Of a stretch of 64,000 nt of DNA, positions 15,826-39,964 are shown piece by piece. The DNA is from Thiocystis violascens (lineage in GTDB: Bacteria; Pseudomonadota; Gammaproteobacteria; Chromatiales; Chromatiaceae): NCBI GenBank assembly GCA_020721065.1, contig DYNM01000012.1, positions 15,842 to 79,841 of the forward strand. The letters are read 5' to 3'. The notes under the pieces are model-generated. The model worked only from the letters and a program-made list of their open reading frames with translations, made no database searches and was not told where the DNA came from. The position numbers and the translations under genes were made by a program. How positions within the stretch are numbered: the first letter of the stretch is position 1; every line of letters begins with the position of its first letter.

Positions 15826-16084
15826 AAATTCGCCTTTCAATGTGTGTGGCTATTCGTGCGGATATAATACGAATGGCATTTTCTCGATCTGTGTGCGACA
15901 CAGCAAGCAAGCGACCTTTAGAAGAAAAGCCAAAGGTTACAAACCGATCCTCTTCTTCCGAATGGTCTGGATCACGACCAGTCATTGAAAGCCGATCACG
16001 CAAAGCACTGGATGCTTCCTCGAAGGTCACTCCGTGTTTGCGCTGATTGACTTTCGCCTTTTTTGGATCCCATTCAAAGCTCAT
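15812..16084 (-). CDS. brnT: BrnT-family ribonuclease toxin (DUF497)
   Basis: FEWDPKKAKVNQRKHGVTFEEA...DHSEEEDRF...IRIISAR. Confidence 0.92.
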   Translation of the reverse strand: MSFEWDPKKAKVNQRKHGVTFEEASSALRDRLSMTGRDPDHSEEEDRFVTFGFSSKGRLLAVSHTDRENAIRIISARIATHIERRIYEEG

Positions 16085-27238: not shown

Positions 27239-27283
27239 ACCAATAACTCAATTAAAAAACCGCTCGCAACAGTGGCTTTTCTC

Positions 27284-28408
27284 ATGTCAATTCCATCGCT
27301 TGCCGTATTCCGTGATCCCACATTAGCGCGGCGTTTAGCTGCCACAATTGCTGCCACCATTGATCCTGCCCGCAAATATCGGTTTATGGAATTCTGTGGC
27401 GGTCACACCCATGCCATTTTTCGCTATGGTCTCGCGCAACTCCTGCCGCCACAGGTGCAATTCATTCACGGCCCCGGCTGTCCAATTTGCGTATTACCAA
27501 TCAACCGTTTAGATCATGCCATCGCTTTAGCAACGCAACACGAGATCACGCTGTGCAGCTATGGCGACGCGCTGCGCGTGCCCGCCAGTCACCGCCGCAG
27601 TCTGCTGACCGCCAAAGCCGCCGGTGCCGACATCCGCGTCATCTATTCCACACAAGATGCTGTGCAACTGGCGCGAACTCAGCCAGAACGTCATATCGTA
27701 TTGTTTGCAATCGGTTTTGAGACCACCACGCCCCCGACAGCAGTTGCGCTACATCTCGCTCGCGCCGAGCGTTTACACAACTTTTCTGTCTTCTGCAATC
27801 ACGTTCTCACTCCGGCGGCGCTGCGCTGCATTCTCAGTGCTCCTACACCGCAACGCCTTGAATTAGATGGCATTCTTGCGCCTTCGCACGTCAGTACCAT
27901 CATTGGCACCCAACCCTATAACTTTGTGACTGAAGAATTCCAAATACCAATTATTGTTACTGGCTTTGAACCATTAGACGTATTGCAATCAGTTTTAAGT
28001 TTAGTACAACAATGCAATCGCGGAATATGTAGGGTTGATAACCAATACACCCGCGCCGTGACCGCAGCGGGTAATCGTAAAGCACAAGCATTGATGGCGA
28101 GTGCATTTGCGATTCGCCCTTTTGAATGGCGCGGGCTGGGGCAATTACCACAGAGTGGATTAACACTGGCAACTGAATTTGCCAATTTTGATGCAGAATT
28201 GCGTTTTTCAGTCACACTGACCACCACCAAAGAAGTCAGCGGTTGTGCATGTCCAGACATTTTGCGCGGCATAAAACAACCGCCAGAATGCCAACTATTT
28301 GGTAAACCCTGCTGCCCAGAAAATCCTTTAGGAGCCTGCATGGTCTCTGCCGAAGGTGCTTGCGCTGCGTATTGGCAATACCGCACAAATACTATTATTA
28401 AAACCTAA
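27284..28408 (+). CDS. hypD: [NiFe]-hydrogenase maturation protein HypD
   Basis: EFCGGHTH, HGPGCPICV, GFETT, PSHVS, GFEP, C-terminal Cys cluster and GACMVSAEGACAAY. Confidence 0.95.
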   Translation: MSIPSLAVFRDPTLARRLAATIAATIDPARKYRFMEFCGGHTHAIFRYGLAQLLPPQVQFIHGPGCPICVLPINRLDHAIALATQHEITLCSYGDALRVPASHRRSLLTAKAAGADIRVIYSTQDAVQLARTQPERHIVLFAIGFETTTPPTAVALHLARAERLHNFSVFCNHVLTPAALRCILSAPTPQRLELDGILAPSHVSTIIGTQPYNFVTEEFQIPIIVTGFEPLDVLQSVLSLVQQCNRGICRVDNQYTRAVTAAGNRKAQALMASAFAIRPFEWRGLGQLPQSGLTLATEFANFDAELRFSVTLTTTKEVSGCACPDILRGIKQPPECQLFGKPCCPENPLGACMVSAEGACAAYWQYRTNTIIKT

Positions 28409-28438
28409 TTTTTTAACCAGAATAGTTAGAGTAAAATT

Positions 28439-29539
28439 ATGTTAGTAAAGCGCATATTCCGACTTCAATACTGGATCAGTTGCGTAGTATGTTTCACTAA
28501 TTTATCCATTGGTTCTGCATATAGCCAAACAACTGATATGATCCAGAATACGCCCACCGACATCGTGACTGATTTTGATACCACCGCTTCTGAAAACATA
28601 TTACCAACGGGCAATGATGATTCTGTATTAAACCGCTGTTGGACGCCAAAACAATTACAGAACACCGCCAAAGAGCGTGTTATTCATCTGCAAAAACCAG
28701 CCGATCACAGTCCGCCCCAAGGAAGTAGTAACGTTGATTTAGATAACACACACAACCGCGCTTTTTCCACCTCAATTGCTGCGCGTTCTATTCGCTCAGT
28801 CATTCCCGCGCATGGTGAAAAAATCATTGCACTCACCTTTGATTTATGTGAACAAGCAGATGAAATCGCTGGTTATGATGGCGCAATTGTTGATTTATTA
28901 CGCGCTGAAAAAGTCCATGCAACCTTTTATGCTGGCGGTAAATGGATGCGCTCACATCCCGAACGCACCTTACAATTGATGGCAGACCCATTATTTGAAG
29001 TGGGCAATCATGCGTGGACACATGGCAATTTGCGCGTTTTGCGCGGCGCAGAGTTAAACGCACAAATTCTCTGGCCGCAAATACAGTATCAAACATTAAA
29101 ACAACAGTTAATCACGCGCTCATGTGCCGCATCAATACCGGATTCTATTCCAGATCAACCCACAACTTTTCGTTTTCCGTATGGCACCTGCGACGCAGTT
29201 GCATTACAAGAAGTTGCTGCTGCCGGTTTATATCCGGTGCAATGGGATATTGTCACTGGTGATCCAAGTAAACAACAAACTGCGCAACACATCATTGATA
29301 CGGTATTAAAACAAATTCATCCCGGCGCAATTATCATTGCACACGGCAACGGACGCGGTTGGCATACCCATGAAGCCTTAAAAACACTGATTCCTGCATT
29401 AAAAAAACAGGGCTATCAATTCGTCACCGTCACCAGATTACTTCAATCAGGACAACATGTTACTGCGGTAAATTGCTATGAAACAAAACCAAATGACAAT
29501 CTCCGTTATGACAAATTATTTGGACGCGGAACCGAATGA
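28439..29539 (+). CDS. Exported polysaccharide deacetylase-family (NodB/CE4) protein
   Basis: N-terminal signal-like segment; LTFDLC, ATFY, GNHAWTH, FRFPYG, WDIVTGD, IIIAHG. Confidence 0.85.
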   Translation: MLVKRIFRLQYWISCVVCFTNLSIGSAYSQTTDMIQNTPTDIVTDFDTTASENILPTGNDDSVLNRCWTPKQLQNTAKERVIHLQKPADHSPPQGSSNVDLDNTHNRAFSTSIAARSIRSVIPAHGEKIIALTFDLCEQADEIAGYDGAIVDLLRAEKVHATFYAGGKWMRSHPERTLQLMADPLFEVGNHAWTHGNLRVLRGAELNAQILWPQIQYQTLKQQLITRSCAASIPDSIPDQPTTFRFPYGTCDAVALQEVAAAGLYPVQWDIVTGDPSKQQTAQHIIDTVLKQIHPGAIIIAHGNGRGWHTHEALKTLIPALKKQGYQFVTVTRLLQSGQHVTAVNCYETKPNDNLRYDKLFGRGTE

Positions 29540-30039
29540 GCAACCACCAGCCACCATTGACGCAGACGCATTATCAATTAACGCCAACACTCAGTTTACA
29601 ATTATTGTTGCCAGAAGCTGCACCACCGCTTGCAGCGCAATTGATAATGATGGAGCCTTGGCAATCATTAGGGTTTACGCTGCCGCAACTCATCAATTAT
29701 CTCACTCGTGCCGATCCTTGCCTGCATCGCTTTCAGTGCTGTTATCAACAGCAGAGTGTTGGCGTTATTGCGGTGCGTGAACCGTGGCTGCGCGGGGTTT
29801 TTTTGGAATTATTCGCGGTGTTTACATCTCAACAACGGCAAGGCATTGGTGAGCATATCATGTGCTGGTTAATTCAAGAAACAACGTTGTATAGCAATAA
29901 TTTGTGGACAACGGTATCTGATTTTAATACCAGCGCCCAACACTTTTATGCTCGCCATGAATTCACACCAATTGGCAGAATTCCTGATCTGATTCAAGTG
30001 GGACATGAAGAAATTTTGTTGCGCCGCCATCTCAAGTAA
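29536..30039 (+). CDS. GNAT-family N-acetyltransferase
   Basis: Acetyl-CoA motif QRQGIGEHIM, FNTSAQHFYARHEF; 4-bp overlap with the deacetylase. Confidence 0.85.
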   Translation: MSNHQPPLTQTHYQLTPTLSLQLLLPEAAPPLAAQLIMMEPWQSLGFTLPQLINYLTRADPCLHRFQCCYQQQSVGVIAVREPWLRGVFLELFAVFTSQQRQGIGEHIMCWLIQETTLYSNNLWTTVSDFNTSAQHFYARHEFTPIGRIPDLIQVGHEEILLRRHLK

Positions 30040-30112
30040 AGAATGCTTTTTTCGCAATAATAGCCGTCTGGAATCAATTCTTTTTTTCAACTGCAACTAG
30101 AGCGCATCTGTG

Positions 30113-31054
30113 ATGAGTGAAAATGAAAAGTGGTATAGCGATGAAATACGGAAAACCTTTTACAAAGAGCGTTATTCCACCACCAGTCATCACTATTTCT
30201 TTGAACTGAAAGAAGCAAAAAATGGCTCAAAATACATCGTTATTTCACAACGTAAAAAAGTCGGTGATGAATTTGTTGGCGTTAAGATGCGGATTTTTGC
30301 GGATGAAATGCTAGAATTTCAACGGATTCTTGATAAGTTTATTCAATCGACATTACCGCCGCACCGCGACACGCCAGACCCATTCAATCAACCACCAATC
30401 ATTACGCCATTTCCACAACCGCCGCCAATTTCAATGCCCGCACCCGCGCCAGTGTCAATACCAAACGTTGCCAGTGCAGGTGCATTCAATCCAGCTTTAT
30501 CGCAGCAAGGTTTGTTTGAAAAAGCGAAATCGCGTTTGCAACAATTGTGGGGGCGGACGCAGTCCAAAATGGCACCACAGGAATTACAACCGGTGTTTTT
30601 TGAAAAGCTCCTCGCTACCAACAATTGGCAGGAATTTGAGGAATATAGTTATTATTTGCTCAAGCTGTTAGGGATTCAGAATGTGCATCACTTTTTAGGA
30701 GAACGGCAGGCGGGACGTGCTGATGGTTTTTTGAAAACCGGGAATTTAGCGATTTTGTATGATTGCACTTTGCGTGCCGGGCTGGTGGAAGTGGATAAAC
30801 AGGAACAAATCAATAATTATTGTGCGCAGTTGCAGCGCGGAGTAATTGATCTGGCTGAGAATATCAAAGAGGAGTTTTATCAACATAAAAAACAGGTGTG
30901 GATTATTAGCAAAGGCTCCACGCGGTTAATTAAAATCGTCAATACAATTACTGTTAAAGAGGTTCACGTTGCTGATATTATTGCGCTTTATCAGGAACGC
31001 TTGTTGGGCAATATGAGCCAGCAGTTGTTAGAGACGCGCTTGGAGAATTTGTGA
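30113..31054 (+). CDS. PUR/DUF3276-like domain fused via a Pro-rich linker to a PD-(D/E)XK-like nuclease domain
   Basis: N-terminal YFFELKEAKNGSKYIVISQRKK...MRIFADEMLEF is PUR-repeat-like; C-terminal FEEYSYYLLKLLG...ADG...YDCT...QINNY is restriction-endonuclease-like. Assigned by eye. Confidence 0.62.
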   Translation: MSENEKWYSDEIRKTFYKERYSTTSHHYFFELKEAKNGSKYIVISQRKKVGDEFVGVKMRIFADEMLEFQRILDKFIQSTLPPHRDTPDPFNQPPIITPFPQPPPISMPAPAPVSIPNVASAGAFNPALSQQGLFEKAKSRLQQLWGRTQSKMAPQELQPVFFEKLLATNNWQEFEEYSYYLLKLLGIQNVHHFLGERQAGRADGFLKTGNLAILYDCTLRAGLVEVDKQEQINNYCAQLQRGVIDLAENIKEEFYQHKKQVWIISKGSTRLIKIVNTITVKEVHVADIIALYQERLLGNMSQQLLETRLENL

Positions 31055-35299: not shown

Positions 35300-38200
35300 T
35301 TAATCCTTGTTGTATTGGATTTGGATTAATAATTGCTGCGCCGTATTCAGAGCCGGCACATAATCATAATTGTGCAGTTGTTGCTCCAGCCGCCGCGCTA
35401 GATCACCAAACGCCGCGATAAAAAGATCGTGCTCATTCTCAAACACCGTATTGGCATCGGTGTCGTCGCGGGCGAGTAACTGCACCAATTCCAGCACCAC
35501 CGCCCGTACCCGTTCCCAATCAATCTGCGGCGTGACAAGCGGCGCATCGGCAAGCATCAAGAGCGGCGTGGCGACGTGCGCAAACTCCGCCAGCGCGGCT
35601 GCTAATTCATTGATGCGGGAAGTTAAATTGTCGCCCGCGCCCTTGTGGGCAAACGGCAAATCAGGGGCATTGAGATGTTTTGCGCCGCGCTCCACCGCCG
35701 CCGCTAATTCCGCCAAGCGCGTCAAGCCCAGCGTTGCTGCCGCACCTTTCAACGCATGAGCCGTGTGGCGCACCGCGTCCAGCTCGTGCGCCGCCAACGC
35801 TGCCGCGAGTTGTTGACCATCAGCGGCGTGATTGTCGATAAATTGCCGCAGCAACCGCCGTAAACGCGGCACATCACCGCGCACACTGCGCAGTCCTTGC
35901 GCCACACTCAGCCCCGCGATGTCTTCTAACTCCGGCACTCGCGGCACCGGCACTGGCTGCGGCGCAATGGTGCTGACGATTGGCAAAAATTCTGGCTCAA
36001 ACTGCTGCACCGCCGCCGTCGGATCAGTCCGCGTCGGCGCCAGCCAACGCACCAAACTTTGATACAAGCGCGTCGGCTCCAACGGTTTGGCGACGTGATC
36101 GTTCATCCCCACCTGTAAACAACGCTGGCGATCTTCATCAAACGCATTGGCCGTCATCGCCAAAATCGGCACCTCGCTGTACGCGGGCAATTGTCGAATC
36201 GCCTGCGTTGCTGCCAGCCCGTCCAGCACCGGCATCTGAATATCCATTAAAATCAAATCGTAGCGCGTCACCTGCGCCATGTTCAGCGCCATCAAACCGT
36301 TATCCGCCAAACTCACCTGCATCCCCACCGCCTCCAGCAATTGACAGGTCACTTCTTGATTGATCGCGTTGTCTTCAACCAACAGCAACTGTGCGCCTTG
36401 TCGCCGTTCCAACTCGCGTGCGAGCGTGATCGGCATCTCCTGCGGTTCGCCGCTCGTGTGACGCTGCAACGCCGCCGCCAGCGCATCGTGCAGCACTGAC
36501 GGGGTGACGGGTTTGGTGAGAATGTGGGAGATGCCAGCGCGGGCGGCTTCATCTTGTGGCAGATGATCGCCGTAAGCCGTAACCATCAAGAACTCCGGCG
36601 GCGCAGTCAGCGCCAAGGCTTGCAGCTTGAGCGCGGTGTCGATGCCGTCCACGCTCGGCATCTTCCAGTCAATCATCAACAGTCGGAACGGATCACCAGC
36701 GCGGTCGGCCGCCAACACCGTTGCCAGTCCCGCCTCGCCAGATGCGGCGGTCTCCACTCGCATTCCCAACTCCTGCAACAAGCCAGCGAGGATGTCGCGG
36801 GCATCGGCGTGGTCATCAATCACCAACACGCGCATTCCGCGCCAAGGTGCGAGGGTCTGCTGACGTTCGGCGACGGTGGTGGCGGCGATGACAAGGGGAA
36901 TTTCTAACCAAAACAGGCTGCCATGTCCGGGTTGACTGGTCGCGCCGAGCTGGCCGCCCATCAATTCGGTCAAGCGTTTGCTGATCGCCAAGCCCAAGCC
37001 AGTGCCACCGAAACGGCGGGTGGTGGATTCATCGGCTTGTTCAAAGGCGCGAAAGAGGCGCTGCATCTGCGCGTCAGTGATGCCGATGCCGGAGTCTTGG
37101 ACTTCAAGGCGGAGGGTGACGGCAGACAAGTTGTCAGTTGGGGAATTTGAGGCAATAAGCCCGATCTCACTAATCCCCCCCTGCCCCCCTTTTCCAAAGG
37201 GGGGAGATGCTTCTGAGCCCCCCTTTTCCAAAGGTGGGTTGGGTGGATTTGGAGATGCTTCTGAGCCCCCCTTTGAAAAAGGGGGGTTGGGGGGATTTGA
37301 GATCAGCGGGTTGGGGGGATTTACCGCCCGCGCCCGAATCGCAATCCGCCCTCCCGTCTCCGTAAATTTCACTGCGTTGCTGACCAGATTGAGCAAAATC
37401 TGCCCCAGCCGCTTGCCATCGCCCCGCAGCAGCAGCGGCACCTGTTCCAAATCCACCACCACATCTAAATTCTTGTTGGCAATCTGATCTGCCAGCAGTT
37501 GGCACACATGATCAATCACCCGCGCCAGCTCAAAATCCTGCGCTTCCAGCGTCATCTTGCTGGCTTCGATTTTCGATAAGTCCAGAATATCGTTGATAAT
37601 TTGCAGCAGATGCCGCGCTGAAGTGGTGAGTTTATCGAGCTGATCGTGCTGGCGCGGCGTCAACGGATCGCGCCGCAGCAAATGCGCATAACCAATCACC
37701 GCATTCATCGGCGTGCGAATTTCGTGGCTCATGTTCGACAAGAAGGCGCTTTTTGCCTGATTTGCCGCTTCCGCCGCCGCCTTCGCCGTTTCCAATTCAG
37801 CCGTGCGCGACGCCACCACATCCTCCAAATGCAGCCGATAGTCTTCCAACTCATGGGCTGTGGCCACCCGCTCAGTGATGTCCTGCACAATGCCCATCCC
37901 AAACAGCCCACGACCGCTGGCATCAAATTCAACTTCCGCCCGCTCCTCAACCCAGCGCACGCGCTCACCCACCACAATCCGATGTGTCAGCCGATACGGT
38001 TTACCCAGCAACGCCTGATCCCAAGCCACCAGCACTGCCGGTCGATCATCGGGATGGACGCAGTTGATGAACACCTCCAGCGTCAACGGCGTTGCCCGCG
38101 TTAAGCCAAAGATGCGATAGGTTTCATCCGACCATTGCAGCCGATCCTGCACAATGTCGAGCCGCCAATGTCCGGTCTGCGACACCGCCTGCGCTCGATT

Positions 38201-39964
38201 CAAAAACAGCTCGCTCTCACGCAGCGCCCGCACCACCTCCAGCCGTTCCCGATGCAGCAACGCCATGCCCACTTGATCGGCAATCTGGCACCCAAACACC
38301 ACCTCATCCTCACACCAATGATGCGCCTGCCCCACTTGCTCAAAACACACCACTCCGCGTGGCAACCCGCCCGACATCACGCAGCAATCCAACATCGACA
38401 CGATGCCTAGCGGCTGCAAATACGTCTCTGCATAACCGGTGGTGCGCGGATCAGTCAGCGCGTCGCTGGCGTCCACATAACGATGTGCAATCAACCAGTC
38501 CAGCTCAACGCGATACGCAGCAAACGCCATCTGCATTCCTGCCGTGTGGCTTCCGCTTGTTAATTCATATAAATCAATGCACTCCAACTGCGTCAGCGCC
38601 GCATCAAACAACCACACCGACACCCGCGCCACCCGCAGCATTCGGCTTAAACACGCCGTGATCTCACGCGCAAATCCCACCACATCGCCGTTGATGCCCG
38701 ACTCAAAGTGGCTGATCTCATGGATTAAATGGGTGTGCAGTTCCAACCGCGCCGTTCGCGCCAGATGTTCGCGCTCGCGCTGCTTTTGCTCATCAATGTT
38801 GCGCCACACCGCCGACACCATCGGCTGCCCATCGTGATAGAGCGTGCGAAATGTGATCGCAACTTCTTGAATGGTGCCGTTTTTTGCGCGATGGCGGGTT
38901 TCAAAACCCGTGATCGTGCCGGCAAAAATCGCGTTGGTATTGCTGGCAATTTGTTCTGACGAGTGCTCGGCTTGAATATCTGGCACCGCCAGCGCCGCAA
39001 ATTCCTCGCGGCTATATCCCAAGCCTTCGTGTGCCGCCGTGTTGAATTGAATGAAGCGCTGCGTGTGCGGATTCAATAACACAATTGCATCCGTCGTCTG
39101 GCTAAACATCGTCTCCACCAATGTTTCATGTTCATGCAGCACTCGCGCTGCTTGGCGCCGATTGAGCACCTCCACGAGGCGAGACAACACCGCCTGCACC
39201 AAGCGCACCTTTTCGGGGACAAAACTCGGCATCCCCGGTGGACGCGGCGGCGCGTGGCGATACGCCAACGTCAAGCGCAACGGCTCGCCCAACTGGGTGT
39301 AATCCTCCATCGCCAACACCCAATCCGTCAGCGCAAAGCCGGGCGTGAGAGAATGATTGCCACCCCAATCCAGTCGCGCCGTCGCCAACTCCGGGTCTTG
39401 CAACCCGCCGCGCACCAACTCCAACACTTGCGGTAACAGCGTCGTGAGCGGCTGCGTCAACTCTTCTGACACGCGAAAGACTTCGTATAAACACCGCTGT
39501 TCTTTCACCCGCTCCGCGAGCAGTTGCTGCTCACAACGCAGCTGCGTTTCCGCCTGTTTCCGCGCCGTGATGTCCCGCACGATGACGATGCAGCCTTGCC
39601 CCGCCGGGAGTCGCCGCAGCCGCGCATCGAAATACCCCACGCCCTGCGGCAACGGCAGGCTGTACTCAAACACCACCAACTCATCCCGACTGAGTGCGTG
39701 CATCAGGTGCTGCTTGAATTGCGCGGCAATGTCGGGCGGCAACACTTCATCAAACCGGCGTCCGAGAAAAAATGCTGGCGGCACATACAGCGTTGACTGC
39801 TCGCGAGCGCGGTAATCCAACAGAGTGCCGTCGGCATCCACCAAAAAATACAGATCGGGAATCGTCAGGCTGACGTCCATCACCAGCGCCTGCAACGCCG
39901 CACGCCGACGAGCGATCTGCGCCAAATCAACGTCCGATAACATGGCAAGATCAGTCATTGACAC
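35300..39964 (-). CDS. Cytoplasmic hybrid histidine kinase (PAS/GAF-HisKA-HATPase-REC-REC-Hpt)
   Basis: Several PAS and GAF segments, [56 protein letters not shown]. Confidence 0.93.
37129..37323. repeat. In-frame cluster of C6/G6 palindromic repeats plus a heptamer copy inside the HATPase domain
   Basis: Encodes [49 protein letters not shown]...SPTDNL; 48-bp internal periodicity. Confidence 0.88.

Follow-up and report, generated by a model that had tools for sequence, protein, structure and literature searches.

A predicted PUR-repeat nuclease of Thiocystis violascens and its uncharacterised C-terminal domain shared behind many nucleic-acid readers

A stretch of 64,000 nucleotides of the Thiocystis violascens assembly GCA_020721065.1 (contig DYNM01000012.1, forward-strand positions 15,842 to 79,841; hereafter the window) carries, at positions 30110 to 31054 of its plus strand, a gene whose product joins an N-terminal PUR repeat through a flexible linker to a C-terminal domain with the predicted fold of a PD-(D/E)XK nuclease. 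An earlier reading of the bare sequence (the original prediction) had proposed a PUR domain fused to a PD-(D/E)XK-like nuclease, possibly active in defence. On balance we believe that the gene encodes a nuclease tethered to a nucleic-acid reader and acting on single-stranded or unwound nucleic acid, with defence as the weaker half of that proposal. The argument builds on two folds, a conservation pattern, the shuffling of modules among proteins and the evolutionary behaviour of the gene. The features that it uses are listed here, with residues counted from GTG 30110 (subtract 1 for an ATG start).

30110..31054, plus strand: whole gene including the stop codon, from the open reading frame (ORF) call, the N-termini of homologues and nucleotide homology from 30113.
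30143..30355, plus strand: PUR repeat, aa 12-82, with the signature HHYFFELKEAKNGSKYIVISQRKK, from PurA, the family profile, model confidence and Foldseek.
30356..30580, plus strand: proline-rich flexible linker, aa 83-157, from model confidence (39-66), dN/dS and composition.
30581..31051, plus strand: C-terminal domain with a predicted PD-(D/E)XK fold, aa 158-314, of an uncharacterised family, from the topology of the AlphaFold2 model, Foldseek and a second model.
30638..30640, plus strand: E177 (of F176-E177) in core helix 1, presumed metal-ligand or auxiliary acidic residue, from conservation.
30722..30724, plus strand: D205 of (A/P)DG at the start of core strand 2, the putative 'PD' aspartate, from conservation and the AlphaFold2 model.
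30761..30769, plus strand: D218-C219-T220 in core strand 3, the '(D/E)xK' position, reading DxT, from conservation.
30797..30820, plus strand: K230-x2-Q233-x2-N236-Y237 at the start of the second core helix, from conservation and a predicted helix at 231-243.

The ORF, stop included, yields 314 aa when counted from GTG 30110 and 313 aa from ATG 30113. The latter is probably the start codon, because homologues begin with MNENDKWY and the closest relative is homologous in nucleotide sequence exactly from 30113 onward. The surroundings of the gene show no conspicuous sigma-70-like promoter or intrinsic terminator. Compared with the C. okenii orthologue, the PUR repeat shows a pN of 0.09 and a pS of 0.76, and the C-terminal domain a dN/dS of about 0.10; both domains are under strong purifying selection, and this is a constrained coding gene, far beyond chance. 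It is also AT-rich, as had been remarked: its GC content is 0.426 and its GC content at third codon positions (GC3) is 0.435, compared with a GC content of 0.55-0.61 in the flanking genes and a GC3 of 0.56-0.72 in sucB, sucA, dut and coaBC of the window.

The N-terminal domain was identified by several methods. On the window protein alone, Pfam PurA (PF04845) aligned exactly to aa 17-80, at E 0.066 and 13 bits against a cutoff of 25, and was thus sub-threshold. A profile of 44 full-length homologues matched the Borrelia burgdorferi Pur-alpha (BpuR) chains 3nm7 and 3n8b at an E of about 5e-6. The AlphaFold2 model of the window protein, built on the alignment of these 44 homologues, contains strands at residues 15-23, 28-35, 41-51 and 54-63 followed by a helix at 64-81, all with a predicted local distance difference test (pLDDT) score above 90. 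Foldseek superposed this part on 3nm7/3n8b with a template modelling score relative to the target, TM(target), of 0.74-0.83, a root-mean-square deviation of 0.9-1.8 A and an identity of 27-28%; human and Drosophila Pur-alpha were weaker matches. Four relatives reached Pfam DUF3276 (PF11680; best E 2.7e-5). Because the family profile, the model, the superposition and the DUF3276 matches in relatives agree, we consider the assignment of a PUR repeat sound at the level of a predicted structure, and this part of the original prediction stands. A functional PUR domain consists of two PUR repeats. Some relatives carry two in tandem (P0009, P0016, P0061 and P0107), and the presence of both one-repeat and tandem-repeat versions is consistent with the need for a pair of repeats in each PUR domain.

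The C-terminal domain (aa 158-314) was modelled with an alpha-beta-beta-beta-alpha-beta topology, again at pLDDT above 90. A Foldseek search with the whole model returned as its top PDB match 2p14, the catalytic small subunit of R.BspD6I (E 1.7e-4, TM(target) 0.52), followed by Nt.BspD6I, arenavirus cap-snatching endonucleases, Hjc and DdmD, and also by 5lhc. As a replicate, a distant relative with a different N-terminus, the L026 protein, was modelled independently (pLDDT 91.5). Its C-terminal domain matched McrC (E 3.7e-4 to 2.4e-3), 2p14 (E 4.7e-3), DdmD, Nt.BspD6I, Hjc and Can2. All interpretable fold matches of the domain in both models are PD-(D/E)XK nucleases, arenavirus endonucleases being among the weak matches of both; the viral structure library gave no interpretable match. 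The two independent models, with top matches exclusively to such nucleases, agree with the PD-(D/E)XK-like character first proposed and point to a restriction-endonuclease fold.

Family membership was sought by sequence. In the window protein, no model of Pfam, NCBIfam, PADLOC or PHROGs covers the C-terminal domain. Among 31 C-terminal domains of the family there are weak Pfam echoes of Mrr_cat (two members, best E 6.8e-4) and Cas4 (two members, best E 3.6e-3). The FokI cleavage-domain family (PF09254) was considered as a family by sequence and rejected, none of the 31 domains matching it in Pfam even at an E of up to 5. By its predicted fold the domain resembles the FokI, BspD6I and McrC modules, yet it is not demonstrably a member of any named family.

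Conservation within the domain outlines a probable active site. All motifs cited in the original prediction were found (WQEFEEYSYYLLKLLG at aa 173-188, ADG at 204-206, YDCT at 217-220 and QINNY at 233-237). In an alignment of C-terminal domains (A3), F176, G188, G202, D205, G206, D218, T220, K230, Q233, N236 and W264 are invariant and E177 is conserved in at least 90% of members; in a broader alignment (A2), D218 alone is strictly invariant and the other residues listed are conserved in at least 90%. In the model, E177 belongs to core helix 1, strand 2 opens with D205, and D218-x-T220 is part of strand 3; the helix that follows presents K230, Q233, N236 and Y237 on a single face, where Q233-x3-Y237 resembles QxxxY. 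The conserved pattern reads E-(A/P)D-DxT-K-QxxxY, with a helix-1 glutamate and acidic residues at the start of strand 2 and in strand 3 as in the PD-(D/E)XK superfamily. At the position of the canonical lysine stands T220, as had been noticed at the outset, and this threonine is itself invariant in A3 and present in at least 90% of A2.

A lysine is nevertheless conserved nearby: K230, 12 residues after D218 in the primary sequence, opens the next helix. The cap-snatching endonucleases influenza PA and arenavirus L likewise take their lysine from a helix. In Pa4535 (1y0k), the lysine has moved into the second core helix, giving the motif PD-EXX-K (PMC3424549). The likeness to these enzymes would lie in a lysine supplied by the helix after strand 3 instead of by the strand; they differ from the PUR-nuclease protein in that their families and substrates are unrelated to it. 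On its conservation and predicted secondary structure, K230 may be a relocated catalytic lysine, and we infer from conservation and the predicted structure that the site is active although non-canonical.

It is unlikely, in our estimate, that the nuclease fold is dead, with the C-terminal domain binding nucleic acid or oligomerising and the whole protein serving as a BpuR-like regulator of transcription or translation on single-stranded DNA (ssDNA) or RNA. Such a regulator would fit the change from lysine to threonine in essentially all members and the housekeeping-like genomic contexts described below; stand-alone bacterial PUR proteins such as BpuR are regulators (PMC6736767), and inactivated PD-(D/E)XK domains are common, for example in the CnuC proteins of CoCoNuT systems (PMC11090510). 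It would be hard to explain, without catalysis, why two acidic residues together with a lysine, a glutamine and an asparagine are invariant in A3, and a third acidic residue conserved in at least 90%, at PD-(D/E)XK active-site positions. The canonical lysine has been replaced by a conserved threonine and not by random residues, which argues for a functional variant rather than for decay. The C-terminal domain is, moreover, the constant module behind many binding domains, the pattern of an effector rather than of a second binding domain.

Between the two domains, the linker (aa 83-157) is about 75 residues long and 23% proline, matching the Pro-rich linker described at first. It is of low confidence or disordered in the model (pLDDT 39-66) and evolves with a dN/dS of 0.32-0.73 (0.32 against C. 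okenii), compared with about 0.1 in the domains. Its length and sequence differ among homologues, down to about 25 residues in cyanobacterial homologues of about 260 aa.

The shuffling of the C-terminal domain among alternative readers goes beyond the original prediction. With phmmer, an exhaustive search at an E of up to 1e-3 yielded 248 clusters (50% identity), most of them matching aa ~155-314 only. Among 60 diverse members, the N-terminal partners recognised by Pfam were the cold-shock domain (CSD; eight members), DUF3276/PUR (four), DCD (two), the N-terminal hybrid-binding domain (HBD) of RNase H1 (Cauli_VI; one) and MrcB_N (one), with one to two PUR repeats or one to three CSDs per chain; further DCD-like N-termini were recognised by eye. 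The commonest partner is an unannotated domain of about 110 aa that follows the pattern YIMVT.W..HW...PTLFIK...W.G.V...YFKV...GWY, has no Pfam match and is duplicated in P0158, P0182 and P0195. In the L026 model it forms a beta-barrel weakly like ASCH and Lon-N and PUA-like (3iuw, TM 0.59, E 0.12), and it is possibly a new reader domain. Examples are the following.

L026 9692-10516, L028 9662-10477, L027 6793-7734 and P0110-P0205: partner domain of about 110 aa.

PUR-type genes were found in Chromatiaceae, in a Desulfococcaceae metagenome-assembled genome (MAG) and in many cyanobacteria (sll1439 of Synechocystis, Crocosphaera, Spirulina and Geminocystis), and also in Chloroflexota, Deferribacteres, Kapaibacteria, Cloacimonetes, Saprospiraceae, Phycisphaerae and a Hodarchaeales MAG. 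The non-PUR loci were recovered through a tighter alignment (A1), the diverse C-terminal alignment having no conserved stretch, and are biased to loci that match QAG[KR]ADGF[FL]. Two or three CSDs are widely found fused to the C-terminal domain, with conservation within Microcoleus/Tychonema and Nostoc/Nodularia (L031-L035, L037-L052 and L054-L061), and shorter CSD versions occur in Gilliamella/Orbaceae, which are bee-gut symbionts, and in Gallionellaceae/Sideroxydans. A metagenomic protein of 163 aa (P0237) combines a Cauli_VI hybrid-binding domain with a PUR repeat and may be a fragment of a longer HBD-PUR-nuclease.

By analogy, a constant C-terminal domain behind interchangeable nucleic-acid readers bears the signature of an effector nuclease, and its pairing with many readers strengthens the idea of a targeted nuclease. 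We propose that a PUR domain is assembled from the single repeats of two chains, as in Borrelia BpuR, tandem-PUR relatives achieving the same within one chain. The paired domain would bind single-stranded or locally unwound purine-rich DNA or RNA. Pairing would bring two C-terminal domains to the bound nucleic acid, and the flexible linker would let them cut nearby. E177, D205 and D218 would form the metal-dependent site, K230 on the next helix would stand in for the strand-3 lysine (T220 here), and Q233, N236 and Y237 would assist. Binding specificity, dimerisation, catalysis and biological role are the steps that we infer in this scheme.

As to biological role, the gene behaves as an accessory gene: it is solitary, AT-rich, patchy and sometimes decayed. 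The C-terminal domain occurs in 2 of 121 Chromatiaceae genomes and is missing from a genome of the same genus (G081), which is too diverged and rearranged for a clean empty-site comparison (sucB at 69% nucleotide identity, with unrelated genes downstream). In 18 of 18 loci, the gene lies 4-15 GC points under its flanks. Copies in a Crocosphaera MAG and a Deferribacteres MAG contain in-frame stops, a Saprospiraceae MAG copy carries a frameshift, and in a Cloacimonetes MAG copy an internal deletion removes the D218-T220-K230 core. These copies are located as follows.

L011 ~10200, L016 ~10370, L025 9945-10040 and L024 10004-10642 (P0083): decayed PUR-nuclease copies.

The copy of Crocosphaera watsonii WH 8501 (L015) may be N-truncated, since its match exceeds the largest ORF and is missing some 15 residues at the N-terminus.

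The solitary, AT-rich, patchy and occasionally decayed state of the gene favours a restriction-like role, as do the relatives with DCD or MrcB_N readers. In structure alone, the protein is what a type IV restriction enzyme is, a reader fused to a nuclease without a cognate methyltransferase. Its most likely role is to eliminate, in a restriction-like manner, single-stranded nucleic acid that is foreign or aberrant; in this proposal the nuclease part is the better supported and the defence role unproven.

The genomic neighbourhood bears on this role. In the window, the gene is preceded by a polysaccharide-deacetylase/GNAT pair (4-nt overlap) and a solitary hypD, and is convergent with sucB-sucA. 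The GC content of the upstream block is 0.51 in hypD, 0.44 in the polysaccharide deacetylase gene and 0.46 in the GNAT acetyltransferase gene.

27272-30109 of the window: low-GC upstream block, in whose place the closest relative has mfd (L080 1-2189).

The closest homologue (78% amino acid and 80.5% nucleotide identity; L080/L081) is arranged as mfd, the gene and then, convergently, sucB and sucA. In C. okenii (L004/L006) and another MAG (L082/L083), with homologues at 70-71%, mfd is again directly upstream on the same strand and the downstream genes differ; in the window genome, mfd lies on another contig (G000 contig C5, L084). Comparison of these sequences indicates that mfd followed by the gene is the ancestral arrangement in the Chromatiaceae clade. 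It also indicates that a breakpoint, from rearrangement or insertion, abuts the start codon in the window genome, because nucleotide homology starts exactly at ATG 30113 and mfd is elsewhere in that genome. The linkage may be inherited synteny or may reflect a functional tie to transcription-coupled repair or R-loops. The original description of an accessory position next to sucB therefore stands in part: the gene is compositionally foreign and patchy, but its junction with sucB is common to the closest relative and mfd is linked to it in three lineages. Elsewhere in the window, at 35300-39964 on the minus strand, a 1554-aa hybrid histidine kinase has a repetitive NPPNPP.../KGGSEAS insert inside its ATPase region.

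The linkage to mfd, the housekeeping contexts and the PUR, CSD and HBD readers favour cellular maintenance of R-loops or ssDNA instead of restriction. The protein would then be a structure-specific nuclease acting on single-stranded regions, R-loops or RNAs of its host in repair, in the resolution of transcription conflicts or in RNA turnover, which we rate as a minority possibility, if one to be taken seriously. In C. okenii and two further Chromatiaceae lineages, the gene comes directly after mfd in the same orientation, its neighbours elsewhere include ruvB, scpA and nucleotide-metabolism genes, the PUR domain, the CSD and the RNase H1 HBD recognise ssDNA or RNA and hybrids and not modified bases, and no carriage by mobile elements was found in the plasmid and phage collections detailed below. 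A maintenance function sits poorly with so patchy a distribution in Chromatiaceae, with foreign composition in every locus checked and with recurrent decay; the mfd linkage is limited to one clade and broken in the window genome, and other members of the family carry a DCD or MrcB_N reader of the sort usual in type IV restriction.

Partners were sought among the neighbours in a census of three crude ORFs (greedy longest ORFs) on either side of each locus; it had no background control, and what it did not find counts as absence of evidence and not as a formal negative. The 16 PUR-type loci have 86 flanking ORFs, in which no Pfam family was counted more than three times; the 92 ORFs flanking 16 loci of other types include Uma2 five times and various housekeeping genes. 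No methyltransferase recurs among the neighbours of either type. Among the 16 PUR-type loci, PADLOC models gave strong matches specific to one defence system at two only: at one (within L006-L025) a Septu pair within three genes of the PUR-nuclease gene (PtuA E 4e-97, PtuB E 4e-74), and at another a DndC-like protein (E 1e-106). The rest were mostly generic ATPase-type or isolated matches; at the other-type loci, the matches were scattered only.

Synechocystis PCC 6803 has an ORF of 82 aa (MDNKTLVEKRVNYTLSLNGRLIIIENVPARVNEETGEQFFS...; L001/L003 7760-8008) that overlaps the start of sll1439 by 8 nt. This overlap would fit a toxin in a toxin-antitoxin or abortive-infection module, in which the nuclease would be restrained by a small neighbouring antitoxin, and the family is AT-rich and patchy like many toxin-antitoxin loci. 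The 82-aa ORF has no homologue upstream of other PUR-type loci, though, and many loci lack any upstream small ORF; with no recurrent neighbour family and no PADLOC match either, we regard a toxin as very improbable. A conserved operon partner or antitoxin was rejected as a candidate on the same grounds, the ORF not being conserved and the neighbour censuses having no recurrent family.

Several results weigh against a reader-tethered nuclease engaged in defence. On the structural side, the Foldseek E-values are modest (1.7e-4 to 5e-3) at a TM(target) of about 0.5, the profile of A3 has no sequence match in the PDB, an hhalign comparison with a FokI cleavage-domain sequence aligned nothing, and the canonical (D/E)xK lysine is absent. 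On the genomic side, linkage of the gene to mfd is stable in three Chromatiaceae lineages, the sll1439 locus of Synechocystis is of housekeeping character (ffh, scpA, a pdxH-like gene and a desaturase), and outside the Chromatiaceae clade no neighbour recurs over 32 loci and about 180 neighbour ORFs. The window protein matched 0 families of PADLOC-DB 2.0 at an E of up to 1, and homologues were not found in 72,556 plasmids, 50,697 phage genomes or IMG/VR, nor was there a PHROG match. The defence half of the original prediction was accordingly not borne out by PADLOC matches, by a recurrent partner or defence enrichment at the 32 loci, or by phage or plasmid carriage.

A wider proposal, which we offer tentatively and hold to be doubtful as a whole, is that the C-terminal domain is an unnamed nuclease family with an E-(A/P)D-DxT-K-QxxxY site that serves as a universal effector behind readers, with PUR and CSD reading single strands, HBD reading RNA:DNA hybrids, and DCD, MrcB_N and ASCH-like domains reading modified bases. 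In cyanobacteria and purple sulfur bacteria, the PUR and CSD versions might on this view act as 'strandedness-dependent' restriction enzymes, directed against R-loops or against the ssDNA or RNA intermediates that phages, plasmids or transforming DNA pass through.

The logic of type IV restriction is to fuse a reader to a nuclease, and its known readers are specific for modified bases within double-stranded DNA. If confirmed, a single nuclease module that follows PUR, cold-shock and RNA:DNA-hybrid-binding domains would extend this logic to strandedness or hybrids, and such enzymes would be relevant to the restriction of ssDNA or RNA phages, to conjugative transfer, to natural transformation or to the control of R-loops. 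Bacterial PUR repeats would gain a first effector context beyond small regulators. The conserved DxT...K pattern would be an active-site variant, and the uncharacterised sll1439 of Synechocystis, a model organism, receives a concrete hypothesis. If active and non-specific, the compact C-terminal domain could become a FokI-like tool module.

Among known proteins, Borrelia BpuR shares with the N-terminal part a single beta-beta-beta-beta-alpha repeat and the signature YFF(E/D)(V/L)K..(K/R).G. BpuR, at about 120 aa, is a stand-alone regulator, whereas the repeat of the window protein is an N-terminal module ahead of a predicted nuclease fold, in a protein that by itself falls short of the Pfam PUR threshold. 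The catalytic small subunit of the type IIS enzyme R.BspD6I (2p14), the best or near-best structural match in two models, Nt.BspD6I and FokI-type cleavage modules resemble the C-terminal part and share with it the concept of a non-specific cleavage module led by a separate recognition module, probably with two catalytic units. The differences are that there is no detectable sequence kinship, that strand 3 reads DxT and not (D/E)xK, and that the recognition module is a predicted single-strand binder instead of a sequence-specific reader of double-stranded DNA.

Type IV enzymes (McrC and the EVE/DCD/YTH-PD(D/E)XK fusions) are alike in that McrC is the best match of the L026 C-terminal domain, that some members carry DCD or MrcB_N readers, and that genes of the PUR-nuclease family are solitary, with no recurrent methyltransferase. 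DCD-PD(D/E)XK and McrB-type fusions have been read as modification-dependent restriction (Bell et al. 2020, PMC7641849). The PUR-nuclease protein differs in having no GTPase partner and, with its CSD and HBD relatives, in carrying a reader of a type that recognises strandedness or hybrids and not modified bases; no association with defence islands was seen at the 32 loci, within the crude three ORFs on either side. CoCoNuT systems combine CSD-type single-strand binders with PD-(D/E)xK nucleases and are predicted to act in restriction, possibly aimed at RNA (PMC11090510). They share with the present family a CSD attached to a PD-(D/E)xK nuclease and differ as multi-gene, McrBC-derived systems with coiled coils and GTPases, compared with a single small protein without a partner. 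PUR fusions are mentioned in neither PMC7641849 nor PMC11090510; in the literature searched, sll1439 goes unmentioned, DUF3276 appears only in passing in an unrelated context, and no description of the architecture was found, in keeping with its being called undescribed. The combination of a reader with a PD-(D/E)XK nuclease is already known in kind; new are the PUR reader, the wider set of single-strand and hybrid readers and the DxT...K site.

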